A stretch of 63,237 bases of DNA, filler included, from Hausera hauseri (Eukaryota): assembly GCA_046269625.1 (NCBI GenBank). It is 13 parts of 13 records of this genome, joined end to end, with 100 filler letters (N's around TTAATTAATTAA, not from the genome) between each part and the next. Parts side by side here need not be neighbours in the genome. Positions count along the whole stretch, not along the records: positions 29,698 to 36,307 come from JBJURY010081991.1; 12 more parts are not named here. One strand, written 5' to 3'. The notes beneath the pieces are model-generated. The model was not told the origin of the DNA. It saw nothing but the letters and a program-made list of their open reading frames with translations, and did no database searches. The position numbers were made by a program, and so were the translations under genes. Positions 5,932 through 55,777 of the stretch are shown here, piece by piece (the first letter of the stretch is position 1; every line of letters starts with the position of its first letter).

Positions 5932-6277
5932 ATTTGCAATTACTTTTTGTCATATTGCCAACTATTCTATGTTAGTCAGATAAGGCAATGACTAACATAT
6001 TAATTGTACTAACTGTAGAGCCAGAACCATATAATATTTTGGTTCTGGCTCGCGGTCTATAGTTATTAATAACTGTCGCTGACAAACTATAATTTTGTAA
6101 GTAGTACATATTGAATTTGTTATTTACGTGCATTTTCATTGCAATTTTGTTGCAGGGCTCTCATGGCTCTCGTGGCTTCAGAGCCTTTTTTATTTATAGT
6201 AACATGTTTTTATTGGTTCGTTATGACTATAAGTTATATCCTCTGGTGTATATTCACATTTCTTTCGATTTTTCATT

Positions 6278-19895: not shown

Positions 19896-20187
19896 GTATC
19901 GTATATCTGTTGTGTTCATAAAGANNNNNNNNNNNNNNNNNNNNNNNNNNNNNNNNNNNNNNNNNNNNTTAATTAATTAANNNNNNNNNNNNNNNNNNNN
20001 NNNNNNNNNNNNNNNNNNNNNNNNTTAAATATAAAGTCGATTAAATACCTATGTACGCAGACGTAGTATAATGGTTTAATCACACAATGGCAATTTTTAT
20101 TTTAATAACACAATACACTGAAATTAGGCACATACAACTTATTTATTCTTGTTTATCATTTAACACAATTACTTTATCTCTTTAAAC

Positions 20188-23100
20188 ATGGATAAAGTAG
20201 CAGTATTGATTTTTTATTTAACTATATTTAAATATTTTTACAGTGCAAATTATATGTCCATTATTGAAATTCTATAATGCATGGTCCAGTTCAATGTCAC
20301 CAGATCGTGGAAAGCTATTACAAAATATGGAGAAACGGACTTATTACTTATGCTCCGAATGCCAATCTGTCAATGCTGTTTCGTATTTGTAATTTTTTGA
20401 ACAGCATAAGCGGCATTTAAGTCAGTTTAATGCATCATGCTCAAAGAAGCAAATGGCTCAATCAATCCAACCTCATGAAACAAACCAAATCTCGAAATCA
20501 GCGTCTTTCCCAACCTATCAAGAAGTGGAAAAATATTATTTAACGAGATTTAATGGATCAACTTACCATGTCTGCCGGAATTGTAAAAGTGTAAAAAATC
20601 TCAATTCTCTGACTTATAATCGCCACAAAGATCATCTTGCACGCTTCGAAACATTGAAATAACGTCATATTCTGTAAACATGCATGCAAACTACGCAGCC
20701 GTCAACCAGTACAGCGAACACGAGAATCACGGCAATCAAACATAAAACACAATCGAGTCCAAAACCCAGTAAAGTCCTTAGAGTTCGAGTAGCCTACAAA
20801 TATGCTATGAAACAAAGAGTGAAAGCGTTTTTCATCAAATCCTCCACAAACGCTCATACCCGGACAGTCGGTGAATTTATGGAATCTTGCCAGTGGGAGG
20901 TCTAAAGAATTTTACAGGATGAAGTAAATCATAACAATTCACATAAGGTAAACTTTTTTCCTTGAAGCATTGTTCCTTAATGTCGATGGTGAAACGACAC
21001 AACGGGCATTCAAACTATGAATATGCCGTACTTAAAAAACTGATTTACAGGATTTCATTGATGGTGAATTCCACAAATTAATTAATGAAGCTGGGGAAAG
21101 CGAAAGGAAGAACAGCGGATGGACGATATCTGCAATCCGACAGCTGAGTATTCGAGTAAGTATTCGCTAATAGGTGGTTCCTTTTATACACACAAAGTCT
21201 AACATACAAAGTCATGTATAAATTCGTAAAACTTTCAGGATACATTTTGCTTCAAGTATGCGGTCTTAACTAAACTACTGGTGGATCAAGACGTCACAAA
21301 TCAACACCGAGTCCAGTAATATGATAATTTAGAGCACTATTACGATTTCAACTGCATACTATATCCACCGAGTTTGTATTACATCAAGAAATCTGAGACA
21401 GTCAATATTACCTTTATCAACGCTTTTGGATAGATGAATTAAACAAAGTGTACCCAGTGAAGGTCTGCATTGAAGAAAAAGATGATCATAGAGACCTTCT
21501 CATATTCAGCACCGAAGATAGAAATGGAGAACGAAGCCATTTCTTGTACATACGCAGCATTGATGGATTGATTTGCTCCAAAGTGATGCGAAATGGGCAC
21601 CGTATATTCATTGGTAAAATGTGCATCATTCATTTTGATGACGAACAGAAAATGGAGGAACACAAAATCTACTGCATCCAAAATGTGTTTTGAGTTGGAT
21701 TTCCTGAGGAGGAAACGACTGAGTTTAAGGAATACGAGAAGACAAATCGCGTTCCTGTCATTGTGCACTGCGATTTTGAGTCAATTCCTCCACCAGTTCA
21801 TACATGTAATCCGCAGAATGACAAGTCCAGTACGACAATTATTCAGACACATGAAGCAATGTCTCTTTGTATGTTTGTCAAAGGATTCCAGCTCGAAGAA
21901 CCATACATATGCAGAGGCCCGGATGCAGCAAGGATTTCAATGAGAAGTTTGGTGCAAATTGCTAAAGACGTTGAAGATATGCCAGACAGATCGACGGACC
22001 TATTAACAAAAGAATAACGTGAGCAGTAAACGAGCGCAACAGAATGCTGTCCATATGAAAAATCGTTTGCCGTACAGAACGGAAAAGTCCTCGATCACTG
22101 TTATTTCACCGGCAAATATCGAGGTGCAATATGCAAGAACTGTAGCCTCCGTTTGCAAACGAGTCTGATTCATTCCGGTAGTTTTCCATATTCTGTCTGG
22201 ATACTACTCACATTCTTTTATTCGCGAATTGGGTGAGTCTCCAGGACAAATAACAGTTATACAACATAACCAAGAACGGTATATAACATTTACTAAATAC
22301 GTTGGAAAACAAATGCAACTTTGATTCATCAACAGCTACAAGTTCATGAGTAACAGTCTCGATGAACTCAGCAGAAACCTACCGGAAGATGGATTTACGA
22401 AAACAAGAATACATTTTTGAAATAGCCAGTTGTTCAGTCTAGTCAAGCGAAAAAGTGTATTCTCGCATGACTACATTACAGAGTGGGATAGGTTAGAAGA
22501 AACGTCACTGCCAGCTAAGAAATACTTTTTCAGCGGATTATACCAATTAGATATTTCAGATGAGGACTATGAACATGCACAAACGATGTGGCACGAATTC
22601 AATTTCCGAAACCTAGGTGAGTACAGTGACGTGTACTTGAAGACTGACGTACTGTTGCTCACTGATATATTTGAGAGATTCAGAGCTGTCACCATGGGCT
22701 CACACAAAGTAGATACGACACATTATTCCACCGCTCCTGGGATATCTTAGAGTGCAATGTTGAAACACACCAAGGTACAACTGCAGATAATCAGACACTT
22801 TAGCATGATTCTCATGATGGAGCACGGGATTCGTGGTGGACTGTGTCAAGTAGTCATTCCTTATGTTGAGGCCAACAATAAGCATATGGGTGAGAAGTAC
22901 GATGAAAATAAAGAGTCAAAGTACATCACATACCTGGATGCTTACAATCTCTGCGGATAGGCCATGTCCTACTACCTTCCGTATGGAGACTTCAGATGGA
23001 CAGAATGGGTCGACAACATGGATACGGACATAATGGTAATCAGTCCAACATCATCCACAGGGTATATATTTGAAGTGGATATTGAGTACCCTTCAAACTT

Positions 23101-24045
23101 ACATAAGCTATATGATTAGCTCCCATTTCTGCAAGAATCAGTTAAGACACCGAGCTGCAAAAGTGAAAAATTAAAAAAGTGATTCAACATCTCGGTAATC
23201 GACAAAGGTACGTTGTATACTGTAGACTACTTTAACAGACCATTCAACATGGGCTTAAAGTCACTGAAATCAGAAGGACATTGCAGTTCACTCAATCCTC
23301 CTGGCTAAAACCTTAAATTCAATTTAATACGGTGCTCCTAGCGTGCTGGAAACGATATTGATAAGGACCATTACAAGCTTTACAACAATGCCATGTTCGA
23401 GATGACGATGGACAATATACAAAACCGGCAAAATATCGAACTGGTTACCGAGTGGAAGCGAGCAAGAAAACTCATTAGTAAACCAACATTTCGAAATTAG
23501 GAAATCTACACGAAAAACCCTATCAGTATTGATTTCGGAAAAGACTGACTGAAATTCAGTAAACCAATGTCATATTATATATTTTAGATTTGAGCGAAAT
23601 ACTCATTTACGACTTCCATTATAAAACAAGGCTGCCCAGGTTTGACTTGGAAAATCTGCAATTACTGTACATGGATGCAGACTCACTCATGTATAGCATA
23701 AACACGAGGGATTTAATGGCGATGGCAGTAAACATGGACATGAGTGATTATCCAGCGAATCATCCGAATCACACATTAGTCAACAAAAACGTACGGCGAA
23801 AGTTTAAAGACGAGATGAACGGCTCAATAATCACACGATTCATGGGTCTCAGGCCAAAAATGTATGTGTTGATTGTCGGTAGTATCATTAAGAAGGTGTC
23901 TAGCGGGCGGTTGTGCGAAATCAATTAACGATGGATGACTATATTATAACACTACACGATAATCAGGTAAAAATTAATACAGTGCATTCAATCAGATCCC
24001 GTTCACGTATTGTAAACAGTGTACAGCTGCAGAAAATTATTTTGA
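20188..24045 (+). pseudogene. Near full-length decayed pPolB (Polinton/adintovirus type)
   Basis: NSGW, VHCDFES, LDHCYFTGKYRGAIC, RKSVFSHDY, YSDVYLKTDVLLLTDIFE, GIRGG, YLDAYNLCG*AMS, KLYNNAMF, LLYMDADSL, KFKDE, GLRPKMY; spliced 5' end (41-nt intron 20203-20243). Confidence 0.95.
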
Positions 24046-24145: not shown

Positions 24146-26400
24146 CGTTCGGTATTACTACCGGACCAGCCATATTTACAAGAATGATGAACAAAATGTT
24201 AATGGGATTGGATCATGCTTTTGCATACTTAGATGATGTACTGATAGCGTAAAGGACCGAAGAAGAACATTTAAAGGATATCGAACACACATTGATGAGA
24301 CTGGAACAAGCCGGATTGAAATTGAATCCAAAGAAATGCAAATGGGCTCAAAATGCCGTATCCTACCTTGGCCATATAGTTGGAGAAGGAAAATCGAAAC
24401 CAGATAAATCGTTATTAAACAAAATATCCGATTGCAGGGAACCACAAAACCAGAAAGAGTTAAGGCATTGGCTAGGATTATGCGGATATTACGCAACTTA
24501 TGTGCCGGATAATTCGAAGATTAATGCCCCCTTATATCGTCTACTGAAGAAAGAAATTAAATGAAAATGGACGTACGTCGAACAGAAAGCCTCTGATGAA
24601 ATGAAGAAGATATTAACCAGCGAACCCGTCTTACGATATCCAGATTTCAACTTACCTTTCATAATCAAGATAGACGCTAATAAAGAAGGCATTGGTTATG
24701 AATTAGCACAGAAAAGAGAAGATGAAGAATTAGAACACCCAATTGCTTTCGGAGGACGATCTTTGAAAAAAGCCGAGAAAAATTACTCTGTTACCGAGTT
24801 GGAAACTCTAGCTGTAAAGGAAGCACTTTGACACTTCAACGTTTACGTATATTGGCAGAAAATTATAATTGTCACTAATCACAAGGCTGTTACGACCTTA
24901 AAGTGACAAGCCAATAACCCGACATGTAGACTTAACAGATGGATCGAATAAATATTGAAATACAATACCGAATTCCAGTATAAGCCACGGAATAAACATG
25001 TAGATGCCGACGCCCTGTCCAGACTAAAGACCAAAACGAGCGCAATCACCGTAATGAAGAAAAGTCAACTCGAAGAAATAATAGATCGCCAACGCGCCTT
25101 AACGATGGATAAGGCCATTAAAATTTCAACAGAACACAAAAAGGATAAGGTCATCCAGCAGATTATAGAATTTGCTAAAAAGGATGTCCTACCAATAGGA
25201 CGACAGTTAAGGAAATATTTACACAGACACGGACATAAATATTGCGTATTAAATGACAAGAGCGACGAAGATATTTTATATTATGAGCGAAAAGGAAGAA
25301 AACTAATAGTTATTCCAAAAGGTTTACGAACCGAAGTGTCAATGTCAGAGCACGACTCGTACTTAGCCGGACACATATCCTGGAAAATGACATTAGAGAG
25401 GATAACGAATAAATACTTTTGGCCTAGTATTTATATTGATGTGAAGAACTGGGTAAATGCTTGTGAAGTATGTGCAACTAAGCAAAAGAAGATGAAAAAT
25501 TACATGGCCGAATTAAAGCCAATCGACGTACTTAATAGGCCAATGCAATCCATGTCGAAGGATATCGTAGAACCTCTTCCTACGATTCACAAAAATAATA
25601 AGTATATCTTGACGTGTATTGATCGACTAACTCATTTTGTTGAGTTGATAGCATTAATTGATCAAAAGGCCGTAACTTTAACAGAAGCCATAGTGAGACG
25701 AATCATTTGCCGATACGGACCCCCAGACCAAATACTCACAGATCGAGGGAGAAATTTTGCAAGTGAATTATTTGAGAAAATCACCAAAATATTTGAAATC
25801 GAACGATTAACGACCACTGCATATCATCCTCAGTGTAATGGAATGGTCGAACGGATGAATTCTACTGTCATACGTATACTGTCAACAGTAGTGGCTAAGG
25901 ACCAAAAAGATTGGGACGAAGTTTTAGAAGGAACTCAGTTTGCAATTAATACCACACCACATCCAGCAACGAGATTTACGCCATTCTTCATGATGTATGG
26001 GCGCAAAGCCGTGTTGCCCACGGACTTAGGAATGACGCCATACACAGACTTAGAACAAAACTTCGCAGAAGTGCTACAAACGCGATTACAAAAGTGTTGG
26101 GAAATTGCCAAAGAATTATCTCAAGAATACCAAGAGCAATTTAAAAAACAATATGACAAGAAAGCAAAACTACATAACTTGGAACAAGGAAATTGGGTTT
26201 ATGTGCATTATCCAGAAGCCAAAAAAGGCACCTCGCTGAAACTGACCCGTACAGGCAGAGGACCGTGCGAAGTGAGCAGAGTTACGCCAACTACAGTATA
26301 TATTAACAAAAACGGAAAGGAAGAAGTCGTATCAGTACAAAAAGTTGTCAAGACAGAGATACGGCCCAATAAACGTTACAATCTATGCTTACGAGAAGTA
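24146..26400 (+). mobile_element. Ty3/Gypsy pol (RT C-half, RNase H, integrase), with some stops
   Basis: PFG..AYLDDVLI, YLGHIV, LRYPDFNLPFIIKIDAN, NYSVTELETLA, ADALSR, HHCC (HDSYLAGH..CEVC), D-D35E core (TDRGRNF..QCNGMVERMN), GPC. Confidence 0.95.
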
Positions 26401-26419
26401 AAAACTTCCTCAATAATTG

Positions 26420-27836
26420 CCAGACCGATCTCGTACGTTCAGATAGTTTTAGCACTACCGTTAATTGCTTCTTATATTCCGAGAACACAAGCTCAATGGT
26501 GGCACGATGAGTCGACTCTAGGAGATATATACGGAATTCGGAAGAATGGATCAAGATCGGAAACTACCAAAACAGAAAAGAAACCAACAGCCGAACAAGT
26601 TCAAAAACAAGAAGACACCAAATTATTGCAATCAATGACAATTCATTATTATTCACCAAATTCCGTATGTGTTGGATTTAAGGCTTGGAAACCGCATCAC
26701 GACTTCGGAAGATTTCAAATTGTCTTACTTTACATAACCACAAAAAAGCGAAAAATTGTGATTTTGAACCTGGAGACTATATGCAGTGTTGCGACATAGA
26801 CTTTGGACGCACCTATAACCTCACCTATCGTCTATACTTACCAGGCTCATCCGAAATTTATATTGAAACTAAGCCACAATTTTAACTAGCCATCCCTGCA
26901 TGGAACAGACATCATGGAGTAAAACCTAATGAAATGTTACGATCCACTGACCCAGATATAAGAATATTAGACGAAAATATCCAGAGAATCTCTGTGAATA
27001 GGGAAAAACAATGCATTCAAGTAGATGCTAGAACAGGACTGACTCACAGTCAGGAAATCACTATCACAATTGAAGCAGCAATTGGACCAACTCCGAAAAT
27101 AGAATATTGTTCTATTCGTGCAGATGTGCAACACCCATGTTGTAAAATACCCGTGAACCAAGAATTCAAAATAAAATTTGACATATATGAAGTACGACCT
27201 AACAAACCAAGTTTACAACACCGAATTTATTATCCAGAAAATAAAATTTGGAAAATTTTAGTGGAAGCCATGACCAAGGAGTCGACCACTACGATTATTT
27301 CCTCTACTCGTACTGTTACAGCAAATAAAATGCCAAGAGCAGAATTGGAAAGCATATTGATCAAATTTACGGCACACCGATATAAAATCGCGTTCTTCGT
27401 GGAAAAGAAACAAAATTACGATATACACATAAGTTGTCGAACAACGCATAATAATCAAATTGTAATATTATCTAAAAACAATTATCAAACAGAATGCAAT
27501 TTACTAAAACCGCAATCCGAATACGTAATACAAGTACACGCACAGAACAAACAAACGCAAATAAGTACTTTGCATACCTTAGACGAAATTCGCGCGGAGT
27601 CACATACGCATGAAAATATAGACGACGAAACTACAACACATTTACTACTCGAGCACCACTAGGATTAACGGCCTTACCGATTGCATCTATTACAGTGCTG
27701 TCAACGTTTCTTCTCAATGTATTATTGCGATTTTTCGACTAGTTACCAAAAATTGTTATTCTAAGCGTCATAAAAATTCAGAATTGGAATTAAGGGAACT
27801 GGAAAACCTTGTGAATCCGTATAATAAAATAACCTG
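26420..27836 (+). pseudogene. Putative type I membrane protein with up to 3 FN3-like beta domains, starting in frame with integrase
   Basis: Signal-like ISYVQIVLALPLIASYIPRTQA, three Cys-containing beta-rich units (the last LKPQSEYVIQVHAQN, FN3-like), TM LTALPIASITVLSTFLLNVLL; broken by one frameshift and stops. Confidence 0.5.
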
Positions 27837-27939
27837 ACAATTACAGATCAGGTTATTCTGTCATCAAACAAAGAATTGGTTTTGGTTCAAAACCACCCTT
27901 TGTTTTAAGATTAACCTTTATATTTTCTTTTTCAGATTG

Positions 27940-29590
27940 GTAAGTAATCAGACCCAGATGAACCCGAGCCGATCTGAATCGACACCGAAGAAACTGCAAG
28001 CCGACTTAGAATCGATGCCGAGGAAACTACGAGTCGACTTAGTATCGACGAATTTTTACAGCAATATGTGACAGTACGGATCCCAAATTCAAAGGCCATC
28101 TATAGGCAAATCAATACAGAGTTACGAGGAAAGAATTTCGTTCAATACGGGAAAGTTGACGAGATACCAAACAGTTTGGAAGTAACGACTGAAGAGGCCA
28201 GAGCTATATATTTATATGCTTGGAGAGAAGATAAGGATGCCAGAGTATACCCTTTGTAACAGATAACCCAGCACCAAGCGAATAAGGAACAAAAGATATA
28301 TGTACATTTGGTCGACGGGGAAATTTATTATCGGCTGAAAGATCAGAAATGGGACTCTTTCCAAAGAAGAGAAAGCCGGTTTAGCACGTTCGTATTTGAC
28401 AGTAAGAATTTCCTTTACTACGAACTGGAATTTCGTGTAGCCGCCTTATCTGTGAAAATGATGGTCGAAATAACTAAAGAAGAGGCAATACCCATCTCAT
28501 TGCCGCCCTTAGAATTTAGACAAAGGCCCACTGAAGAAGAACACGACGCACATCTGTATTTATTCAGGCTAGTAACCGATGACAGAAATATTAGGATTGC
28601 CGAAATAAATTATGGAGAAGGAGAAGAAGGAAATTATATCCCGATGGAATTATCCATCCGAGAAAAAAATGGGGCCGAAGTCTATTCGAAAATTATTAAT
28701 CCGAGAAAGAAAGTACTAGAAACTTATGCAAAAGTTACCGGGATTAAAAGAGAGCAATTGAATCATGGAAAGGATTCTAGATTAGTACAACCGAAAATAG
28801 CACAATGTCTCTACGGATACGTCTTAGTGGGGTATGAAGTAGAGAGAATGACAAAAAAATTAAACATACCAGTAACGCACCTAGCCAGAATAAGAGCGAT
28901 AGAAATCCACCCAACCGTAATGGGACAAATGGAAATAAGGGTCAAAGAGAAGAAGGGTTATCTACCACCGACAGTGGAAGGCCGATTCAAACTTATGGTA
29001 GAAGCCATGACTGGAGGAAATATAAAAATCAGCAGACTGTTGACCGGCAGCCAAAGATCCCAATATTTAAGGGACATAAATGCTGGACTAAAGTGGGAAC
29101 ACGAATGGATTCCCAGTAACCCGCAATAAAACTTACGGAATTTACCCAAGCTTGAAAAGATCAGCACACGTTATAGAAAAAACTTCCATCCTTACTCACC
29201 ACCAAGAAATGTCGAGATTAAGCCAAAATAGAACTACCAGATAACCATCCAGGGACCGAAAACATAGAAAACAGAAGACAAATGGCAAACCAACGAGAAA
29301 CCGAGTACAAGCTATGTCACCACAACCAACGATAATCCATTTAAAGTACCTGAAATTCCTCGGAAATATTTAGAAGAAAAAAATAGAAATTTAGAAATCG
29401 AGACCGGAAGGACAGCTAAAAGAAAAACCTTTTTCTTCGATTACGTATTTAAGAAAAGAAGTAAAGAGGAGGAGAAGGGACCGAAAGAAGGACACAAATC
29501 GGACATTAAGGATTCAAAACCAAAGCAACAGGTAAACCGAGAATACCAGCAGAAGGATCCTCAAGAACAAACCTACAATCCCATGCGGTG
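27940..29590 (+). pseudogene. Accessory ORF containing a Rex4/ISG20-like DEDDh exonuclease fold
   Basis: ELSIREKNGAEVYSKIINPRKKVLETYAKVTGIKREQL..VQPKIAQCLYGYVLVGYEVERM parallels the Rex4 pattern RVSIV..G.VVYD.YVKP..V.DYRT.VSGI..ILVGH...D; ORFs 28068 and 28308 share a frame. Confidence 0.65.
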
Positions 29591-29697
29591 AAACCTANNN
29601 NNNNNNNNNNNNNNNNNNNNNNNNNNNNNNNNNNNNNNNNNTTAATTAATTAANNNNNNNNNNNNNNNNNNNNNNNNNNNNNNNNNNNNNNNNNNNN

Positions 29698-30281
29698 GAC
29701 CATGATGGCGCCCAAGTCCGCGGCACCATATATGGTCAAGAGATTTAGTTAAGCAATTAATTTTAGCTCGACCAAACAATTTCGAGACTGCATTGCAACT
29801 ATCAGAGAACTTAGAAATGGCACTAGATAGATATGCTAGACAGAACGATAGATATGACCGAAATAATGATCGTGATAATCGTGATAGAAATCGGAACAAT
29901 AAAAGATTTAACGATAATAATAAGGACAGAGGCTATGAGAATAAAGCTCAAAATGCTATTAATCGCAGTATGAGACATGATAATAGGAACTTCAGTGATA
30001 ATCGGAACACATATAATCCGTATAATAAAATAGGTTGTATTTTGGATAGGAACCAAAATAATGACCGAAGTAATAAGAATCGATATATAGATAATCGAAG
30101 TTTCGAAAATAGAAATAACGGAATCGATAAGCAAGCTCAACCAACTAAAAACAAAATAACGAGTAGACCCAAATCATCAGTAAATGAAGACGGACGACAA
30201 AGGATTGGCCGAGACGCAAATCTGATTTGTTACTCATGCGTTAAGGAAGTACATATAGCTAGATCGTGCCCTAACCCATGA
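29698..30281 (+). mobile_element. Retrotransposon Gag C-terminus with N/D/R-rich linker and CCHC zinc knuckle
   Basis: RPNNFETALQLSENLE (end of capsid region) and ICYSCVKEVHIARSCP. Confidence 0.85.
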
Positions 30282-30779
30282 AGTGTATCATTTTCAGAAA
30301 CCACTAAGGTTAGAACGATAAAGGATAATTTAGAAGGAATATATGGGAACGAGGTGACATAAGCATGATTATCGAGATGCAAAACCTACGAAGGTATATA
30401 AGAAATATGGGCGAATCCAATAATCCACAAGTAATCAAGGATAGAAAGGAGTACGAAGAAAATTTCAACTAATGGAAGTTTATTATGGATTGAGAGAACC
30501 AAAAACGGAATACGAGAATGCTATAGCACCTAGGAATACTCACATGGCCAGAAAGCAAAACCTAAATCAAGCAGCGAAATAGGAGAAAGAAGAAAAACAG
30601 ACTACGTCTGCAAGTGTAGACTTTGACGCAGATACCGAGGTCGCGTCTTAAAATAAGGGCAAAGCAACAGACAAGGTTGAGAGCGAATTCATTGATCCAT
30701 TAATACTTAAGATAACCAAAAATGGAGGTAGAAGCCCTTCTCTTAGGAACATGTCGGGAACTCGTTCACGATCCCCTAT

Positions 30780-33700
30780 TAAAATGAATTAGAAAAAGAA
30801 GACTTCATCATCACTTTAAGAGATGAAACGGAATTAAATACTCCTGTGATAACCCGAGGCGTTCTGGAAATAACAAGTACTTCGAATATCGACGAAATTA
30901 ATGAAACATGTCCGTTACCACATAGTGAAGAGAAACCAGAAGAGAAAAAATCTATTAAATTTGGGAAGATTAGAAAATCCTGGAAAAATGCAAACGAACT
31001 AAATAAAATAAGAGACACACAGAATGATCCTGGAAGGCTACATGAGAGCCTGCAAAAACTCCAACAAATGAGCAAACAGTTGGATATCTCCGGAAAAGAA
31101 CAGCAATTCATAGAAAAACTATATAAAGAGCTTAAAACCCGCCTTCCGAAAGAGGAAGAAAACATATTTCGCGAACTCCAAATGATGCCGCAAGCCTTGA
31201 TAGAAAGCTGGCAAAATAAATTGGAACTGTGGACAAGGAGTGGAATCGATTTTACGAAAGTTTGGTTGAATAGAAATGAGTCGTTCTTCGACCAGGTTAA
31301 TCAGGTGCAAGCACTATTTAACACACTAAAGGGCAACACAAAACTGAAACGCGCAAGGCGTAATTTAGAAGGATTGATACATGAGATCGAAGGCGCGATA
31401 ATTTCTTATTTTCACAACAAGCCAGTATATGAATTGACTAATGCTGATCTAGAAATATTAGGTATAGACCAAGTTGATATTCCCTCTTTATTAGCAATGT
31501 GCAGCCTGATAAAGGATAGCCCTCGACAATATCTAGATTTGGAAATACGCATTAAAAGAGAAAATGAAAAACGAACTAAAATCAACGACTTACGGATCGA
31601 TGTAGTCCACTCTAAAAAGGTAGAAGCACAGAGAATAATACGCCCTTGCCTTCTCGAATTAGATGAATATAAAGAAGAATTCAACTACATGAAACAGATC
31701 ATAAAATTTGTACAAGGACAGGATCACAAACTAAAAGAAGCTATTGAGACGTTAGATGAAATAATCTATGCTAAACCGGCAATATCGAAACAATTAAGGA
31801 AGTGAATAGATTTGTTACCTTCCATAGCCGGGATAATAAATGAAAGACTAAGGGAATTCGTTGTGGCTGAGCCTATAATGAGACACCAATTGGATGAAAT
31901 GTTACTGGATATTGGTACGATGGAAGACGAAGCGAAATTGCGAACTAAATTTGAATCATTCCGAGAATTGGAGTTTATGAGCCAGAATCAATATCTGACA
32001 ACGTTAACAGAAGTATACAGTATGATAGAGGAGAAGGAATTTTACAGAAAAAGAAACAAGCTAAGTGATCTTCATCGAAGTTTATCGAACATCCGTTGGG
32101 AGGGTATACAGAACCTAATACAGAAACCGTTGAAGGAAATCTCAGTACAGGAAATAGAAACGTTAGAAATATGTAATGATCACCGGATTGCTGTAGCACA
32201 AACACTACAGTATTTACATTGCCACACCGACCTAACGGAAATTAGGAAGGATCTTCAGTTGACGAGCGACGAAGCCAAGTTCATATGCAGGCTAATAGAC
32301 GCAATAGACCCGGACGCCGAAGTATTAAATCGAACGCATAAATTAATTCTATTATTAACAGAAATGGCAGAAGTTGACGAAGTAGTAGCGAAACGACTAG
32401 TAAATCAAATACGTCTAATAAAAGAAACCCGGTTACGCTCCGAGAAAAGACGGCGCGAACTAAATGAATTATTGAGGGATACAGAAGTCTATAAGGACAA
32501 ATATTCTCTTACGGAATCCGAAATGAATGACAAAATGGAATTCATACAAAGATGGCAAAGAGACAGAATCGCAGAAATAACTAGCTATCAAGAGAAAGCT
32601 CTGGTACAACCAGAAGAAATGTGCCGATTAATAATATAGATACAACAAGCATGCGGAAACGGAGACGGATTTAGGATATCCGTAATGAAAACAGTACAAC
32701 CGCAGATAAAAGAACTACGCGAAAGAGTCCAGGTTGGACATGCGGCACTAATAAACTACGAGTTACCTGACGCAGATAATAATGCCGGGTGGGATGAATA
32801 TCTTCAAGGTTTAACCAAGCAAAGTCAAGGAACCCCAATACAAATTCATGAGTCACCTACTGGTGCCCAGAAGATGAAATTTGACGTTCAAATGCTAGTT
32901 GATCCTGCGCTAGCTGAAAAGTAATTGAGCGGTATTTTGAAAATAAACATAAGTGAACATAAGTTAAGAAAATTTATTACAACCTTGACTAAGCTATTCA
33001 GCGAAAATACCGCATACAGCGCCGTACCCAAGCTCCTAATAAAAAAATACGCTAAACTATTGAAAAATAAACCGGAAGCGGAAATCAAAGTGAAGGTATC
33101 ATCCGAAGGGATGGACGATGAGGAATTTGAGTGCACTATCTGCATCACCGTTGCGTATATAAAACAACGGATAATGGATAAAGATGATAAAAATGTATTA
33201 ATTACCGACTCTATTTCAGAGGTAGAAGATTAGCCAAGCGAACTAAAGATGAAGCCATGAGGAAAGCGCATACAGAACATTGAGTTGGAAAAATCATGGG
33301 AATTCAGGATGCCGCAATGTATTTTAAATACTTACAGACTGATGACGACAAACCACATTACGATAAGAACTTAATTCGTCTAAGTGAAACTTTACCACCA
33401 ATGAAACCGAAGCGACCGGTTGGGAGACAGCGAAAAACAAAAGAAATTTATTAGAATGCAGACCTAATTAGGGAATTGAGACAACTATCGGTACCAACCT
33501 CGAGTTCGGATAACGAAGAACTAATCAAGCTAATGAGAGACTTAATTAGAATAGTCAATTATACTGGACTCCAAGGAGACATATTATCCGAGAACGAAAG
33601 ATTAATCTATAATATAGCCCGGATAATTAAAACTTTACGATTTAAATTATCTAAAAGCACTCTTTCTGACGAAACAGTGATCGATAGAATTATGATAGAC

Positions 33701-33920
33701 AATAAGATGGAGGAATTAAGGAAAGTATTGATATATTTAGCAGTAAGAACTAACCCACTTCGGGAAAACGAATTCGACAAGACAATCGGGTTAGCTAGAA
33801 AAGCTGAAAGAAGGGTACCTAAAGAAATAAAATGGACTAAATTATTTGAAAAAGAGGATAATACAAAAAGGGCTAATAAGTTAGAAGACATGATACGAAA
33901 TATCTCTCCAAACAAAGGAA
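30780..33920 (+). pseudogene. About 1000-aa alpha-helical/coiled-coil region of unknown function between Gag and glycoprotein
   Basis: ORFs 30846, 31812, 32685 and 32925 share one frame (also Gag's frame) and are separated by isolated stops; E/K/L/I-rich. Confidence 0.6.
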
Positions 33921-33929
33921 ACGAATCAA

Positions 33930-35760
33930 ATTGGTTAACCAACTTACTAACGATAATGATACTAGTAAAGCAGATAGGAGCCGTCACTATATATGACTGC
34001 GATAAATTCAAGGTAGGTCAGAAATATTCCCTGATGGACTTAGAAACATGTGAAGACGCGAGACCCCACAAGCTCGAGACGGTAGAAAGAAAATATATAC
34101 TATATCAACAACGGGAATTAATCGCAATGGATGCGATGGAATGCATGATCTGAAGATCTCGCAGTGTATTTCATTGTGGTAATATGCACGGGCATTATTC
34201 AATAATCAAACCAACCACACCACTAATCTCAATCAACGTGGATAGACAACAATGTTTAGGAGCCAGATTAACCAGTGAAATGGTTTGGGACGGCATGGAA
34301 TTAGAGGCCCAAGAAGGAAAGATAATTAGAGCCTACAAAGTGGCAGTCGAAAAACTAAACATGCACACCGATTACTGCGTCGGAGCAAAATATGATACAG
34401 GAAAAGGAAAAGAAGGAGGAATAGTAGTCGTAGATTTTTACAAAACCGAGTTAAGATTTCTAAAAGCAATGTTTCATAGCGTTACTAAATTATTTACCAA
34501 AAATCAGAAATGTCATATACAAGACGGCGCTTGCACGTTCCGAAGCTCAGCCGTTGTATGGAGCCCACCTTCAAAGAGAGAATGCAATTTCATCAAAATT
34601 AAGGAATTAAAATTTAATGAGACAACCGGAAAACGCTATACAAATAAATTACACACTAATACGAGATCAAGAGAATATGTAATAGAACACCCCACACCAA
34701 CCATATTGATATCGGATACACACGGGTTAAAGTTTATTAGAAATGATATGTTAACACGCTGCGATGTAGTTATGCATGCTACGAATTACGAAGCGTTTTT
34801 CGTAGCGAAACAGAAATTAACATAAAAACGTACGAATTAAAAACACAAGATGTGCGAATCGACGATTATCTCAAAAATTGAGACGACTATTTATATTATA
34901 AAGGACAAACCGGAATAGCAGAGCTATACCACAAAATGATAACAAATGACTACAGATTAGTTACTGAAGTCATGAAAACCAAACTGGCCTTAATTTATGC
35001 CAACCCAGAATTGGCATCACCAATTATACCAATAAAAGAAGGTGTCTTTGAATGAGTTACCGGAGAGGTCCTGTTAACTTACGAATGCAAAAAAAGAGAT
35101 GTGCCGATCAACGTGGAAGAGAAAAGATGTATGAAGAATTACCAGTCATCTATGAAAATATGCCGAGGCTAGCGATGCCACTTACTAGGGTACTACTCGC
35201 AAACTCGACGGAGCCAACAATACTGAAGGAATGCAAAACGAGTCTGGGTGAACCTATGTTTCTCCTTAGTGAAACAGATTGGATAAGTTTGTCTAATGAA
35301 GGTGCCGCTACCACCCCTAGTAAGCTAACTGGAACACATCTAATCAAGGGATTATCGGAAGAGAAGTTCGAAGACACGGCCAATAAAGGAATTTAGAGGC
35401 CAAAGGACATAAAAGCCTTTAGGCAATTCTTGGCCTTTCCACGGCAACGAACTTATGAGCTGAATCGGGACATGTCAGTGGTGATGGACGACACCCGCTT
35501 TCAAGTAAAATGGGAAACATTACTCGGCGCTAACCATTATCAAAGAGTAACTTCGGAAATATTATATAAGATTTGGGGAAGATTTCTGATCTTCGGACAA
35601 GCTGCATCCGGATTCCTAGCCATCTACATTTTAGTTCAGTTAGTCAAAGCAGTAATCCAAGGTGTTATAAATGGATATAAAATATTCACATTAACAGGAT
35701 TTTTCTGCAAAATTTTAACTGCGATCATCACACCTTTTGGAAAAAAGCCTAAGGCCTAAG
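33930..35760 (+). pseudogene. Chuvirus (Jingchuvirales)-type class III fusion glycoprotein / env
   Basis: Signal WLTNLLTIMILVKQIGA, then IYDC..YSLMDLETC..LYQ..MECMI..FHCG.MHGH, LALIYANP..TGEVLLTYEC, YEELPV..PLTRVL, KGI..FLAFP, and TM WGRFLIFGQAASGFLAIYILVQLVK. Confidence 0.85.
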
Positions 35761-36407
35761 TAGAAAACCGATGGAAAAATGACTTAGAACGCCACGTCGG
35801 GTATTATAATCGCAAACGACGAGGGAGGCCTTCGATTCTGTACAGACGTAAAACTAAGAAAACAATAACACATAGGGATGATTCAGAAAATGACGAGCCT
35901 AAGGGAGGAGAAGAGGTTCCAGAAATAAGATGCGCAAGATGTACTCAGTGATTAATGCTCCATTACCCATCTTGCCACCAACAGCACCAATATATGAAGA
36001 TTTCAACCGCAAATCGGTCGTATCATGTAAGTCAAAAGTCTATCAAAAGCCCATTAATTTTGAAGACCCTTATGAAAAAACAAAACAATATGGAGTACTA
36101 CGGAAAATGAATGTTATCAACCGAGAACCAACAGAAAACAACCACGGAATATTATACTCAAAAAGGATACCGCGTCACATAAAATCGAAATCAGCGATCT
36201 GGGAGAATCCGAAACTGTGCTCCATTCCGGGTCCACTTCCTCAAGAACAACTCATCGACAGTCACGTCAATGAAATGACAAAAAATAATTTATACCCAAA
36301 TGGAGAANNNNNNNNNNNNNNNNNNNNNNNNNNNNNNNNNNNNNNNNNNNNTTAATTAATTAANNNNNNNNNNNNNNNNNNNNNNNNNNNNNNNNNNNNN
36401 NNNNNNN

Positions 36408-36623: not shown

Positions 36624-39267
36624 TCATATTTCCATATATACAAGTCCATTTGGGCCAACTATATACAAATCAGCTGGATAATCGTTAGTTGCAACAGTTG
36701 TCTCTTCTTCTATTGTTATAGTTTCTTCTTCGTCGTCATCAAGTAAGACAACAACGGTAACATCCCACATCCTATAACTGGATATCTTCCGTCGACAAAA
36801 CGGGCAACTTTGGCACTTTGAGAGCCATGTATCTGCACATCGCGTACACATATAATGTGTACACCGGAATAGGGCATACTTAAGACCCAAATTCTTAAAA
36901 CATATTGGGCATTCTTCCTGCTGCTTGTCTAAAATAATTAAACCTTTTAATTATTATTCAGAATTATGTATCTGAAAATAATGTTTCCTCACAACAATAG
37001 ATACTATCAAATTCATAGTGCTCCTCACTCGGGGCACCAGTTTATATGTTACTATCTATTTGGTATTGCGTCGGTGATTATGTGTTATACATGTTCTTTC
37101 TTGGTACAGTAACATATAAATGTTCATTGCTGTATCTAAAGGGGAGTCCGATGGCGGTTCGGTATGTAAAATATACCTGCGCCTATTATCTGTCAGAGTT
37201 CGTGGAGATGCCCTATATTATAGCTTGTTTCTTTGGAGCATTGATGTTTATAATATCTGAACTTTGGTTAGTAATACCCTAGCTCCATTCCTATGATATT
37301 TCAATCTACGCATTAATTCTGCCATATTCACTTTTATAACTTCATCATCCCTACACATTATTCGTCTGATTGTCTCGAGATCAAGTCTTCATAAACACTA
37401 AACTTGCCTGTATAAATTTCATATTGCTCTACCGTCATCAAGGTCATGTAATTCAATTTTCTAGCTTTATAAACCCAGTGCTGAGTTTTTAGTCAGGATG
37501 CTTCGTACACACATTTATTTGAACACAATCTAATTTCTTTAAATAAAGTACTTCATTGAGATCTTCATCCTGAAAGGGAATTCGGATTTCTAATTATAAC
37601 TAGAATTTATTTCTACTAGAGCAGATCTATCTCCGAAATTAGAAACAATAAACTTTTGCAGACTGTGCATCATCTATTAGATATTGGTGACATGGTATTA
37701 TTTCCATCCATCTGAATATTATGTTTTTTGTATCTTACTATTGTTATGACATTTTACTTTGGCGATTCATATATATATTCTATTAATGATTCTAGTACCT
37801 AGAACCTGGGTTTCGTATTCTATCTGTATTAAATATTTTTCCATTTTCCTCTATAAATGGGTATAAATCGCATCTCTCCCTATAAAATTAATATTTTATC
37901 TCTTTTAAATCCTTTATACTACGGATGTTGTTACTAATTACCGAAATAGGCCTGTTATTATTATTATTGTCACGTATTTATTCTGTCTCGTAAGTACAAT
38001 ATATCATATCGAAATATACGATGGACAGTCGACCAGTATTTTGCGCAATTCTATTGTCTGAACGAACACTTCATCTCATGATTCATCGCACATTCGTTTT
38101 ATATTCTGATGTATATTTAAGCATAAACTTTCCACGATTCAACATCAAATCGAATAGACGTACTTTATTTTATACAATCTCAAGATATATTCATCCTTAC
38201 ACAAAGTTAGTTTATTGATTAGTAAGTACCATATGGTCACAAACCATGCATACGTCGTGATTATCAGTAAATACTCTTTTTCACAGATCATATCCTTATT
38301 ATCACCTGATGCAAAATTATAATATTATCTATATGAAGGGGTCGCACATCCATTATACTCATTATTTACACTATGATATTCACCCGTTGTAATACTTTAT
38401 CCTGGTAAACTCTATATAACATAATAACTCATCGTTTTTATTTTCATTCTCTTAATCAATCATAAAAATTTTTAAATTTCCGATAATTATTATAATCTCC
38501 AGGGTACCATCGAATATATACCACTTTGAATTACTACACAGATACCATTAACGTCACTCGGAACAATATTAATATATAAAACCGCCATTAACACTTTCAA
38601 CACGCTATAATTTAACCCTTATTAAGATAAATATCATTAGACCATAAGACATACGATTATAGGAAATGTTCGTCAAATTTATATGAATTAATAATTTCAT
38701 TCAATAAGCTGTAAAACAAGGTACCAACACCTCTATCTTCACACTCCAATTCCCAGCCATACCAACAACTAATCAATACCACCGTTGTTTCACAACTCCA
38801 CCCGTCTGTTGAACTGAAAGAATATTCGGCGTACTTGTGACCTCTATACTCATTATCGGAGAATTGTAATTCCTTAGTATATTCAGTCTCCGGTTCAGGT
38901 TCTCTGTAGGGCCCTCAGGAGAGTCCGTCATCAATTATATTCAATGCTCTGATGTATTGGTGCTTCCGTCATAATCTGTCGGTACATATGGTATCACATA
39001 CATCACGAATTTAGCCATTCTGACATTCATAGTTGTTTTACTAGACACGTTAGTTAACGTCGTTTTACCTTACCATTCCAGCCTCGAAGTTCCACAGCAT
39101 TTCATATCTTTGTTTTCGTATTCTCTCTCTCGATTCATATCTATCTTTGTATTCCGCAAATATTTAATATATCAAAATTGTATTTTAACACAATACTTTA
39201 CATCGATAACATAATAAAATAAAACAATTGACAACTCACCATTATCAAAAGAATTTGCTTCAGCCAT
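36624..39267 (-). CDS. Spliced C3HC4 RING-finger protein (leader exon 39267-39240 plus exon 36928-36624)
   Basis: MAEANSFDN-G|GTGAGT joins in phase to TTTTAG|AC, giving DKQQEECPICFKN..CTHYMCTRC..CPFCRR and an acidic tail. The RING itself is firm; the leader pairing is inferred. Confidence 0.7.
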
Positions 39268-40967: not shown

Positions 40968-43545
40968 TAGTCACCGCATGGTCTAAAAGTACCGTCCTTT
41001 TTTGTACAACGTGTAACGGTGATGACCAAGGAGATTTGGAACGGAGTACTATGCCGAAACGTTCTAGTTTAAGAAATTCAGCTTCTACGGCCTGTCTACG
41101 ACGAGGTGACAGAGGTCGTACTTCTTGGCGTACTGGACGTTGGTGATGTGTGACTATGTGGTGTAAAGTGTTGTTTGCGGGAGTAAAAGTACGGTGTTTT
41201 TTCAGCACGCGTGGACATGATTTGTTGACGAATTGATGTAACGTTGTAGGTAGCTGTGAGAGATTCGGTGAAAGTGGTAAAACGGTTTGAATAGTAGCGG
41301 ATGCCCTTTGTGAGTTGTTTTGTGATGTGAAGTTAAGTGGTATTTGGTGTAAGATTGTCGAATTGAAAATTGTGTTGGATGAAGTATTTTTGTCGAATGA
41401 GCTAACGTTGGTGGCAGTGCCACAATTATCGACATCGAACCTCGATCGTATATCAGTATTGTTATATAAAAATTTTCAAATAGAATTATTGTTATAAAAA
41501 ATCGAATTATGCATTGACTTTTTAAGATTGACTTCCGCATTCCGGTTTACTTCGTGGTAGTCTAAATGCTATTTACATGTTCAGAAATGTCATCAGTGGT
41601 GCCGTTCCTCAAACATTGTTGGCTGCAGTCAACCAGTAAATTATAGTGTGAGAGAAAGAGGGATCCTAGAATTGCCGTCTGGACGTTAGCTATTGTGAAC
41701 GTCCAGTGGAAAGGTGTAGTAAAATTTGGTAAAGTGGAAGATAATTTAGCCATGCCAGAAATGTGTAGCGGTTGACATGAAGCTGTGTATAAAGGCTTAA
41801 GTTTGAGTGGAGAGTTTTGTACAGGAAAGGTTTGCGGTAATAAAGAAATCGCTGCACCTGTATCTATGATGAAGTCAACAGATTGCGCTGTAGGAGCAGT
41901 GATTGCAGCCTTTAGAGTAAAGACAGCAAAAGAGACGTGTCGGCGTTCAGAATGTGAAGTATTGCCATTGCCAGAGTTTTCCGTGACTTCGGGCGGCGAA
42001 TTTAGTTTTTTTTGGAAGAGTGAATTAGGACGACTATGAGAAGGAAAGGCAGTACGTCCGTCGTTCGTATTGGATTTGAAAGTACAGCCTGGAATACATT
42101 TACGAGCTTGATGTTTGAACCTTGCATGGTAAATGCAAATAACGGTGTCCGAAGAAAAATTCTTATCACAAAACTTGCACCCTAGGCAGCACTTCTGAGC
42201 ATTAGTGCTAAATCTGCTGTGGTAATAGCAGATCGACGAACGCACAGGCGATGGTGAGCGGTTTCTTGACGCAGAACGGGGTGCGGTCAGCAGCAAAACC
42301 TCCTCGGCGGGACAGAAACAATTTGTTTAAATTATTATTGATGTTGTTGATTGTTGCACATTGTGAAATGTTTTTGGCACGTAGCTGATTAAGTTTTTGT
42401 TTTATGTATGTATTATCATTAGTGGCAACTGCTGCTGAAACGACTGGCGGAGAATTTACGTGTAGGACATCATGTGTCCTATCGGCTAATTCGGCCAATT
42501 TCTCAAGCGGTGTGGAGTACCCCACCACGGTAAGTAGAGCCCGGCTTTGGATAGGTAGCGAATTAAGAAAATAGTGGCGCAGTAGTTCTGGGTTGTGCTC
42601 TTTAGTGATGCCGAGGGTATGGAGATGCGCTAAGGATGTACGTAAGAATTCGGATGCCCGTTGGGTACCTATAACGTTGTTGTGGAAGAAACGCTGGATG
42701 ATCGTAACCATGGAAGATTCTGTGATCTTAAGAACTGAGTTAGAAAGTTGGGAATATGGGTCTGGAAGTTGAAAGATTTCGATGATATTATGAATGCGGG
42801 CCTTGATGTTATTAGGCAGCCAAAGTTGGTGGAATTGCAACCAAGTTTTGCTAGAGCCTTGGTTGTCGATGAAAAACTTGGTGCAATTAAGGAAAGGAGC
42901 TGAAGAGGTAATAGGTGAGATGTTGCTAGCAGAGTTAGGAGTCGGCTTTTGGAGTAATATGAAAGGTATTGGTTTTTTCGGTGGTTTTATCCCTGTGTCA
43001 GTAGTTGGCGAAGAGTTCATGCCACCACGGATACAGAGATGTATGTGCAGGCAAGTGTGGCTTGAGGAAAATGGTAGGGTTCCGGTGAGAGGTATGATAG
43101 CGCCGTTATAGGTGAGATAAAAATTGGAAGAATTAAATAAGGAAGAAATGAAGGTCCGAAGGGTGGAATGTGTGGATTCATGTAGTGAGGGTATAAATGT
43201 GTTGTGGAGAAAAAAGAAAATAGAAGGGGAAGGAGTGGTACGCCTGGGGGCGTGATGTGGGACCGACACGAAAGGCGCCGTGCGACCGACCGGCGCAGGG
43301 TTGACGGTCGGGACCTCCGCCCCGGTGGGGCGGGCACCAAAGTGCAGGGTGGTTGAGTTTCCCCTCAAATCGCGCAATATCGGAATGTCATCTTCGTATT
43401 CCGTTTGTATTGATTTACTATGGCTTACATTCGGTAAATACGTCTGCTTGTTTAATTGGTGTTGCACGTTTTGTAGTGGTAATATTCGATTGTAAAACGA
43501 TTGAAATGAGCGCATAGGGGTCAATAGGTGTAATTTCAGATACAT
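40968..43545 (-). mobile_element. Ty3/Gypsy element A: Ubl-Gag (DUF7041-like), tandem CxxH..C..C fingers, aspartic protease, RT N-terminus
   Basis: Gag PDPYSQL..IGTQRASEFLR..FLNSLP..LEKLAELAD; ICYYHSRF..AQKC..C and a second copy; FIIDTGAAISLLP..ILGS; RT SKSPWSSPLHVVQK/DGTFRPCGD. Confidence 0.9.
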
Positions 43546-43719
43546 CGGAGACCCGAATCTTCCAACGATTGCCTATCTACATATATGCGAAGGAATTTCG
43601 GGAATTATTTAGACAAATAACTTATCATTTAAAATAAACTGAACTGAAATGATTTCATTGTTTATGAACAAATTACAAATATCGCTATGGATAGAAACGT
43701 TATTGATGATAATTTCATG

Positions 43720-44954
43720 TCCCGGTGCACCTAGAGCGATTTCAAACGGTTTGTTCTTGAAATTAATAACACGAAATCCGGTTAATTGTGCCTGAATTAC
43801 TATTTCACAGAATTTTAAGTGAAGATTTTTCGAGTGAAATCAAACGGCACGGACTTTAACATTCATAGAAATACAAGGCTGAATACGATTCAAGTAAAGT
43901 TTATATTCGTCCCCGTCAAGAGTAATTTCGTCGTCTATTACGGCAGAATAGAAAAACTTAAGCAGGCGTGGATCGGTGCCGATACAAGGGAAAAATGGAT
44001 AATCTGGAATGTCCAATTTCCATAAATTCTGGAAATTATTATTAACTTCTTTGTACAACTCGTGAGTCATGTTAATGCCAAACTTGATTGATTTCGCCGA
44101 TTCATAATAACTATCAACACTTTTCACCGCTGAATCATTATTAAAACTGAAGGATTTTAATTTTTCGTCAATTCTAGCCAATAGTGAGTGAGAAAAATAA
44201 CAATCCCATGATTTTCTTTTCGCTTGAACGTTTTCACCCAAAATATGAAATGCTGATTGACGCCATAAGGGGTTGCACATAAACGTATAAAATGCATTTA
44301 AACAGAGCCATATCCAAAGTAAAAACTGCCCACCAACATAATTTGCTAAACTAAAATCAACCGGCAATATTTGCAACGATTTCGAAGTTAAAATGCTTTG
44401 ATAATACGTAACTAAACCTTTAATTTCACGTGAAATCAGTGAAATTCGCATTAACGTACCTAACATTAAAAACGAATTGACAAGAAAAATTTGGAAATTG
44501 ATCCTTCTAAAGTAATTGGCATATACGTAAAAAGTAAAATTACCATTTGCAATATTGGATTATATGGCGTCTCAACAGTACTTTTAATGTGGTAATTTAA
44601 AACGTTTTGTAATATAACGCATAAAACGGCTACCATTGACAGTTTGACCTGGTGATTGTGATTTTCAAAGAACATAGTCAGCGTAAATAACAATAATAAA
44701 GTGAACAACGTAACCGACTGTCCTAAGGACGAGTAATAATTCTGAACGACAAACGTTGATAAAAAAACGATATCGAGAAAAACTAAAACAATAAGCAGTA
44801 TCAAACTTTTTCGTTGAAGAACTCCAAAATATGGTCGTGATAATTCCAAATAATATTCTTCAATTAATTTGGATGTAAAATAGCAATTTTTAAGAGCTGA
44901 AAAAAGATCTCTGATCCAATTCGACTTTTTAGATGCAGCAGTACTGTCCATCAT
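43720..44954 (-). pseudogene. Multi-pass membrane protein resembling the N-terminal TM half of a transmembrane adenylyl cyclase
   Basis: FTSKLIEEYY followed by about 6 TM helices, RQSAF after the last TM, and a weak C1a-like FHSKNL..VIQAQLTGF after an in-frame TGA; needs a 44-nt GA..AG intron. Confidence 0.45.
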
Positions 44955-45379
44955 TTTTTCGTGATAGTATTGTTATGGCTTAAATAACACTGGTAGTATT
45001 TCCTGATACCAATTTGTTATTAAATGATAAATATCTGCAACAAGAGAATAATCCAAACGATTGTAATCACCTAATTTATGAAGTGATCAAATAAATATCC
45101 GGTACGTGAAATGATTCGAAATTCAAAATAAAACAAACGTTAACTATGGCTAATTGAGAAATGAAATTCAAAATATCCAAAATGGCAAAAAATCAATTGC
45201 TTTATTTAAATTACATTACATCTNNNNNNNNNNNNNNNNNNNNNNNNNNNNNNNNNNNNNNNNNNNNTTAATTAATTAANNNNNNNNNNNNNNNNNNNNN
45301 NNNNNNNNNNNNNNNNNNNNNNNAGTTGCCCGTCAAATCATGATCTTTGAGCATTTATCTTGATAAAAGAATATAAACG

Positions 45380-54059: not shown

Positions 54060-55765
54060 AAACTTATCTGGCAAGTTGGTGAATGTAAAAGTCAATTCCA
54101 TGGTTCCTGCAACGTGCAACGGTTGATCATTGGCAATGAGAAGCGGTGGACAGGAAATCATAGTCAATGTAGGAACAAAGGACAAGGGAAGGAGCAAAAT
54201 GGCAGCTCTTGTGTCTACAAGGAAGTCGATATGTGAAGTATCTCTGCATAACAGTAGAGCTTTAAACAGAAATACTGCAGAAGCGGTGTTGAAACGGCCA
54301 GAAGATTGAGCGATATTGCCTGCGCAAGAATGTGCAGTAAAATCTGGCGGCATTATTAGTTTTTTGAAGGTTTTGGAGAAAAGGAAGAAGAGGAAGAAAA
54401 GCGAGGAAATTTATCGTTGTAATTTTTACAACCAGGCACACATGATCTAGCCTGTGACTCGAACTTATTGTGATAGGCGCAAATACGGTTGTCCACAGCG
54501 TACCGTTCGCTGTAAAACCGACAGCCCAAAAAGCATTTCCTAGCATCCATTCGAAATCGCGTGTGATAGAAGTACGTCATGCGTCCGCCAGGTAAAATGG
54601 ATCGAGTAGAGTATCTGGAAATGCTTTTCTCCCTTGAAGATCTGGTTTCACTTTGTCGAGGCCCATTAAGATTATTTACTTGGGTAGTAATGTCCGAAAT
54701 CGACTGCTATAACTTGTCAAACTGTTGCTGCATTATTTGCAATTTTTGAGTAAAAAATGTTGTGTCTGTAGTTGGAGCACATGTGGTTGCAGCCGCAATA
54801 GGGAGAGAACTGCTGGTATGAAGAATCCCAAAGAATTTGTCAGCCATTATTGCCAGTTTTTTGGTAGCAGTGGACTTGTCGAAAACGACGAGCAAAGCTC
54901 TGATTTAGGTACGCAAAGAAGATAAGAAATAACGGCGAATTAAATCCGCGTTATTCTTAGGTGTTACTTCTAGAGTGCTAAGCTGCAGAATGGCCGTTTG
55001 CAGAAAATCGGATGGCTTTTGGCTTCCTATCGCGTTGTCGTTAAAATACTCTTGTATTATATTGTCAATCGAAGGATCCGTGACATGCAGTACAGCTTCA
55101 CAGATTGTCTCGTAAGGTGTCGAAGATTGTAGCAGCTCGGCGATATTATTAATCTTTTGCTTGACGTTGGCAGGCAGAAGAATTAAAAGGCTATTGGCTC
55201 GCACAAACGAATTTGTGATGTTGTTCGATTTTAGACACTGTTGGTGGAATTGGAACCATAGTTTGCTGGAGTTGCTTTTATCAATGAAAAATTCCACACA
55301 AGGCAAATTTAACAAAGCGCGTGATTGTTGGGGGTGTGGCAAACGATAGACGTTGCCTGTATTCGTGGATTTATCATCCGAGAAAGATTGGTTTGAGTCC
55401 GATTTACCCCGAAGGCGAAGATGGAGCACCAGGAGGATGATGGGACGTTCGTGGCATGTGAAAGGCAAAAGGGAGTTGGAAGGATGTATTATAAGCCCCT
55501 GATATGTGAAATAGAAATCAGAAGTGTTACATGATGAGGACAAAGCGTTATATAAGAACTGTGCTGTCTCGTTGAGTGGAGCTTTTAAGGTTGTAATGTG
55601 TTGATTGTAGCTAAAGACCAGGAAAGATAATTGTAATGAGCTCATCCCAGGGGAATGAAGAAATGCACGGGGGGATTGGGCGGTTACCTTTTGGGTTAAG
55701 AAGTGGTTCGAGCGTACAGCCTGGATAGCGGTGGCAAGTATTGATTGTGATGAAAGAATACCCAA
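54060..55765 (-). mobile_element. Ty3/Gypsy element B: Ubl-Gag, tandem Zn fingers, -1 slippery site, protease
   Basis: LWFQF..LLPANVKQKI..TPYE..IGSQKPSDFL..YFLSSL..KLAIMAD; FYHTRF..ARKC..C and CAYHNKF..ARSC..C; A AAA AAC TAA at 54365-54356; FLVDTRAA. Confidence 0.9.
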
Positions 55766-55777
55766 GGTTTTTGAGCT

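Follow-up and report, generated by a model that had tools for sequence, protein, structure and literature searches.

A record from Hausera hauseri (assembly GCA_046269625.1) carries the end of a Gag, a long spacer and a chuvirus-type fusion glycoprotein on one strand, and the question that it raises is what kind of element this is and where its pol lies. The window analysed here, a stretch of 63,237 nucleotides with filler included, consists of 13 records, each 4-6.6 kb long, with a 100-base artificial linker (N44-linker-N44) between them, and the adjacency of records within it is no evidence of genomic order. The locus is exactly one whole record (JBJURY010081991.1, positions 29698-36307, 6.6 kb) between two artificial joints. 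Very probably it is a decayed piece of a repeated Ty3/gypsy element of the GAG-ENV-POL (Burro-like) type, whose intact copies likely encode one polyprotein, with pol predicted just past the record end. The features of the record are as follows.

29698..30278, + strand: 3′ end of gag, with a capsid C-terminal helix (by resemblance), an N/R/D-rich stretch and one CCHC knuckle
30282..30782, + strand: most decayed part of the spacer X, with a number of stops and one or more changes of frame
30783..33077, + strand: main part of X, about 765 codons in the frame of Gag with three isolated stops
33078..33280, + strand: candidate ubiquitin-like module, interrupted by a change of frame
33455..33928, + strand: predicted helical region, open and in the frame of env, at the position of the Bcl-2-like domain of relatives
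33935..33982, + strand: predicted internal signal peptide
33983..35612, + strand: ectodomain of a class III (gB/chuvirus-type) fusion glycoprotein, with stops and two frame changes
35613..35739, + strand: predicted membrane anchor region, two hydrophobic stretches
35740..36307, + strand: coding-like tail of about 190 codons, with PTAP, and LYP near the record end

An earlier, sequence-only reading of this DNA described coding pieces on one strand broken by isolated stops and frameshifts, and a depletion of stops far beyond chance upholds this description. At 30783-33233, 4 of 817 codons are stops where 59 are expected (P 2e-21), and at 33236-34825 the count is 4 of 530 (P 8e-13). Further 3′, where about 7 per 100 are expected, there are 2/110, 3/274 (35130-35951) and, in the tail, 0/135, which confirms that coding-like sequence continues to the contig end. 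The frame changes on the + strand lie near 30790, 33190-33260, 34800-34830, 35100-35130 and 35900-35950. Codon-position composition is uniform along the record, inside which no terminal repeats are found. The copy is dead, its reading interrupted by some dozen stops and by several changes of frame. The same reading saw no protease or RT in 6 kb after the Gag knuckle, and this is confirmed by a scan of the three + frames of the record, which finds no protease or RT motif, and by Pfam, which finds neither family in the scanned ORF pieces.

The record starts within gag and lacks the 5′ part of the gene. What is left holds a CX2CX4HX4C knuckle at 30228-30269 (Pfam zf-CCHC only E 0.076), and similar N/R-rich Gag tails occur in P0019 and P0026, two relatives of the env; gag is assigned from the knuckle and by resemblance to these relatives. 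The three + frames of the record contain one match to the knuckle pattern, a count taken with the 5′ part of gag missing and with decay that could hide another. Because no single frame is depleted in stops at 30282-30790 (13/167, 8/170 and 11/168, about 12 expected), coding across this junction is something that we infer. At its start, SVSF (30282-30293) resembles by eye the (R/K)SV(T/Q)F behind the Gag tail of P0026 and P0019. An RVxF-like motif (SVSF, SVTF, SVQF, RVSF) is seen by eye at this place here and in P0026, P0019 and P0013; we take it to resemble a PP1 docking motif.

The earlier claim of an internal signal peptide, a chuvirus-like glycoprotein and a transmembrane segment is confirmed by hydropathy and by a profile search against Monjiviricetes/chuvirus glycoproteins. 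PF24664 (Monjiviricetes_fusion) matches over 7-593 of its 653 positions, colinear over three frames, in pieces covering 7-229, 293-392 and 393-593 with E-values of 2e-16, 2e-6 and 4e-23 (pieces read with X at stops). The predicted signal peptide forms a hydropathy peak, behind which the fusogen starts with YDC, and aligns with a like stretch of P0009 (8/17 identical, E 0.22). The ORF 33455-34153 is open across it, with 160 open codons in frame into the signal peptide. Eight cysteines of domains I-II are spaced 11/26/41/45/7/17/59, and the 208 aa up to the anchor region are 31% identical to P0019 (E 2e-28). A transposase-like identity of one env piece, raised by Atlas, was rejected, the rows being sub-threshold. 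Behind the anchor, the tail is likely a linker before a protease, with the record likely ending just short of the protease itself; by eye, LYP also stands between anchor and protease in P0019 and P0009. A PTAP late-domain motif lies at 35978-35989, in the env tail and not in Gag, and PSAP is found at a like place in P0019.

What would follow the tail in an intact copy can be judged from relatives of the env. A full HMMER search with the end of X plus the env piece (P0002) as query returns 49 proteins, the best at E 1e-34 and 30% identity; all match the env part, and 0 of the 49 reach upstream of query residue 205. One relative bears a bacterial MAG label, likely through contamination in binning. 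All 12 relatives of at least 1,000 aa were scanned with Pfam. A protease follows env in the same chain in 10 of these 12, the first one some tens to about 300 residues behind the fusogen, and the two that have none (P0006, P0026) end within env. RT follows env in 5/12, and all five carry RVT_1, RT_RNaseH, Integrase_H2C2 or rve, with no Pao family. Gag or CCHC precedes env by Pfam in 4/12, while pol before env and Pao-type families are each found in 0/12. The whole order CCHC-env-PR-RT-RH-IN is present in P0025, and P0055 (cluster mate of P0016), which is Burro-sized at 4,844 aa, holds env, several proteases, ankyrin, RT, RH, IN and a long tail. In the best match, P0006, the order is Gag, CCHC knuckle, ubiquitin (E 0.031), Bcl-2 (E 0.055), env, and in P0010 a Bcl-2 domain (E 0.001) stands before env. 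A profile built from the stretches that precede env in P0006, P0009, P0010 and P0026 finds Bcl-xL best (E 0.0018), with only Bcl-2-family chains among the best 60 of 105 rows; by these profile matches, a Bcl-2-like domain directly precedes env in four relatives, which is also its place in Burro. Sixteen shorter matches consist of env alone, with one chimera as the exception. After env, P0007, P0009, P0013, P0046 and P0055 carry from two to six stretches in a row that resemble aspartyl protease. In two called proteins the fusogen appears fused to MRP-L47 (P0036) and to FAD-oxidase_C (P0035), both probably gene-calling chimeras.

The record is one copy of a multi-copy, diverged, colinear repeated element in the host genome. 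In one public run from one study (X1), which may be the source of the window itself, 12,129 contigs align to the record and cover all 30 of its bins; this figure is not a copy number. The decayed stretch 30282-30782, divided into 30 bins of its own, is likewise covered throughout by X1. Most of these contigs are 80-95% alike (4,778 at 90-95% and 5,425 under 90%), 1% run on into unlike sequence, and contigs among those listed bridge 30790 and the joint between X and env. The stop at 30281, directly behind the knuckle, is far from fixed in all copies, being read otherwise in 818 of 826 depth units (27 contigs). One env stop is read otherwise in 32,602 of 32,630 depth units, and the junction stop at 30580 is likewise not shared by other copies. 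Three other frame-1 stops of the junction are absent from the 40 listed of 53 majority differences, and five stops between 31803 and 33452 are absent from the 40 listed of 1,884 differences.

From knuckle to signal peptide, X measures about 1,220 codons. The sequence-only reading had about 1000 aa of helical sequence here; the long spacer exists and is longer than that, while its helical nature rests on composition, the main part being rich in E/K/L/R/I/Q and predicted mostly helical, and on one low-confidence model of 158 aa. This model of 33455-33928 (AlphaFold without alignment, pLDDT 53) is a generic helical bundle for which Foldseek gives nothing at E 0.001. VIA gives a top Z of 11.4 among many unrelated helical bundles, with no Bcl-2 row among the best 50, a result that excludes nothing. 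Within the same region the GGW motif is absent, the Bcl-2 profile of the relatives finds no match apart from the signal stretch, a direct comparison gives E 0.88, and Atlas returns nothing. A second model without alignment, of 32640-33257, is unusable (pLDDT 33), and a MATH domain guessed by eye at 32640-32920 was dropped, having neither Pfam nor PDB support. A ubiquitin-like fold is hinted at in 33078-33280, where no profile matches at significance: Rad60-SLD_2 reaches E 0.12 on the first half and nothing is found on the second, and a weak HSP (E 0.25) leads to the part of P0006 assigned to ubiquitin by Pfam.

For X, Pfam, NCBIfam and PDB yield no match, neither in general nor for MATH, Smc-like, BIR or ankyrin cargo, and PDB sequence searches of its pieces give chance rows. 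BLAST against four relatives finds no significant match to their spacers, the best (E 0.004) falling at a non-corresponding place in P0013 and the others at 0.25 or worse. Word-indexed protein searches, each limited in length range, give no match, which is weak evidence, and locus scans of viral and metagenome contigs find no relative. We infer that X is a lineage-specific cargo region comparable with the Smc/MATH/Ubi/BCL2 block of Burro. It is one of the longest spacers among the relatives, at about 1,220 aa against about 1,040 in P0026 (which has about 1,340 aa before env in all) and roughly 200-600 aa between gag and env in P0006, P0013 and P0025. The spacer seems to act as a fast-changing cargo bay, with Bcl-2-like and ubiquitin-like modules in relatives that would here have diverged past recognition. 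The available parts of the literature on gag-env-pol order contain no description of an X-like spacer beyond the Burro domain list.

A separate record of the window, 24146-29597 (+), carries a gypsy RT-RNase H-integrase, followed after the integrase by a signal-like hydrophobic stretch and about 3 kb more of decayed coding sequence (fn3 E 0.03). In stranded trinucleotide make-up it lies at JS 0.0062 from the gag-env record, compared with JS 0.0067 between the halves of 29698-36307 and 0.022 or more for the other 11 records. Its integrase is 31% identical to that of P0012, and P0007, P0012 and P0055 also carry 700-1,500 aa after integrase. It is possibly the 3′ half of the same or a sister family; as a sign of a downstream pol, the composition match is suggestive only.

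From relatives and from established membrane-protein biology, a mechanism can be proposed for intact copies, in which one polyprotein would run Gag - X - Env - protease - RT - RNase H - integrase. Gag and X would be made in the cytosol until the internal signal peptide brings the chain to the ER, where a signal peptidase cut behind it would free the N-terminus of the class III fusogen. The hydrophobic region would then anchor the fusogen and return the tail and pol to the cytosol, in which the element's own protease could release the enzymes. PTAP may recruit ESCRT for budding, and the fusogen could give particles entry into further cells, stem or germ cells for instance. The earlier proposal of an enveloped retroelement with env after gag and release by signal peptidase thus keeps its order, likely in the form of one polyprotein, whereas its option of a family with no pol is disfavoured, because in 10 of the 12 long relatives env continues into protease and the record ends only about 190 codons past the anchor.

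The same element could instead express env chiefly through a message of its own, spliced or started internally, in which case X and Env would in practice be separate chains. In favour of this, a Met at 33890 precedes the signal core by about 15 codons, other gypsy elements as a rule express env separately (PMC6431247), and a single chain would presumably force equal amounts of Gag, Env and Pol. Against it, 145 open coding-like codons stand before this Met in the same frame, and in the relatives one called ORF spans the corresponding joint; we regard a separate message as unlikely. The lack of pol in 6.6 kb and the many copies of this very stretch could also point to a non-autonomous gag-X-env family that relies on the enzymes of another element for packaging and copying. 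Against this, the record stops at a distance from the anchor at which relatives are still short of the protease or only just arriving at it, its tail is stop-free to the end with LYP placed (by eye) as before the protease in P0019 and P0009, and a compositionally matching pol record adjoins in the window; we regard a pol-less family as improbable. In that improbable case it would be a high-copy enveloped gag-X-env satellite, with fusogenic particles, helper RT and integrase, and an undescribed helical cargo protein of about 750 aa.

The sequence-only reading noted that chuvirus glycoproteins were captured by BEL/Pao elements. A precedent is Anakin, a published Pao element of mosquitoes with a chuvirus-type glycoprotein (Dezordi et al., 2020; PMC7642597), which resembles our element in carrying such a protein, of the same Pfam fusogen family, inside an LTR element. 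It differs in superfamily and host, as the relatives found here have a gypsy-type pol: all five with RT are of that type and 0/12 long relatives show a Pao family, from which the host element is judged to be Ty3/gypsy instead. Pfam finds no Pao-type gag or pol domain in the record, which ends before pol. The single CCHC knuckle is presumably a gypsy-like trait as well, speaking against BEL/Pao, and we consider a Pao origin very improbable. Least probable of all is that unrelated nested insertions share a strand by chance, as could be suspected from a junction (30282-30790) that is not clearly coding. Because the copies are many, diverged and colinear and do not share the stop after the knuckle, a nested chimera is largely refuted; the bridging contigs, the small share of contigs leading into unlike sequence, the uniform codon-position composition, the lack of internal terminal repeats and the gene order common to relatives likewise argue against it.

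The favoured reading, a GAG-ENV-POL polyprotein element, places the record among systems that are already described. Burro/GYPSM1 are giant gypsy-like planarian elements with env in frame between gag and pol, an order presented as the first such case, and decayed fragments are reported in another planarian (Arkhipova and Yushenova, 2019; PMC6431247). The Burro env has matches to mononegavirus fusion glycoproteins (PMC6431247), and the elements are abundant and transcribed in planarians (PMC13238120, PMC8532177). Ty3/gypsy GAG-ENV-POL elements with gB-type env occur in Nematoda, Bryozoa and Platyhelminthes, and chuvirus-like glycoproteins are found beside gypsy pol (Chary and Hayashi, 2026; PMC13524379). 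Nematode endogenous retroviruses also have env before pol (Sacco et al., 2022, as cited in PMC13524379). These share that placement with our element, come from a different host group and are likened to it by gene order. Their coding sequence is reportedly a continuous ORF. Because Burro and the flatworm, nematode and bryozoan elements are published (PMC6431247; PMC13524379), the plan is not the unusual one that it was first taken for, and the record is a further example of a known gene order.

The likeness to Burro itself is drawn from its published description, and by that measure the element would work like a Burro-type one. Both have a Gag with CCHC, a long cargo region and then env, and the closest env relatives show the order ubiquitin-like, Bcl-2, env. 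In contrast, Burro Gag has two or three knuckles and one is seen here; and the MATH, ubiquitin-like and Bcl-2 modules of Burro are not demonstrable in this copy. Burro exceeds 25 kb in a dugesiid planarian, and the record covers 6.6 kb of its element. The GAG-ENV-POL errantiviruses of the Platyhelminthes C1a group likewise have gag upstream of env on the same strand (here the knuckle at 30228 and env from 33983) and an HSV/gB-type (class III) env with a predicted signal peptide, a membrane anchor and conserved cysteines. Compared by eye, eight cysteines of domains I-II stand in register with Smed_errantivirus_1-6, the spacing in Smed_errantivirus_5 being 11/25/42/45/7/16/78. A closing C-x5-TNY motif is shared with all six Schmidtea GAG-ENV-POL envs, whereas the other 11 of 17 TNY rows hold TNY elsewhere. 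By this comparison of env, the host is likely a flatworm. The Smed errantiviruses are intact copies, unlike the decayed record. Smed_5 and Smed_6 span 16.9 and 18.0 kb including 3-kb flanks and exceed the remaining four Schmidtea elements by 2-3.5 kb, roughly the length of X, and may therefore hold an X-like spacer; the text of PMC13524379, as far as available, contains no description of the gag-env spacer of these elements.

The record adds a high-copy lineage to the small set with a class III fusogen inside a Gag-Pol polyprotein. It raises the questions of how, across the ER membrane, a single chain could supply all of capsid, envelope and enzymes, and of what effect the cargo might have on host cell death or stem cells, for which the published intact elements are better objects than this dead copy.

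Other records of the window hold further mobile-element and host sequence. Decayed pieces of a protein-primed DNA polymerase B, Polinton-like, are seen in 5932-10078 (PF03175, E 2e-4 at 9670-10077) and, by eye only, in 20025-24045. The group formed by 40968-45223, 54060-59025 and 36627-36950 includes a minus-strand gypsy gag-protease-like piece (by eye), with DUF7041 on a related piece at 54908-55777, as well as a Sec7/BIG1 DCB piece of a host gene and a RING finger ORF.
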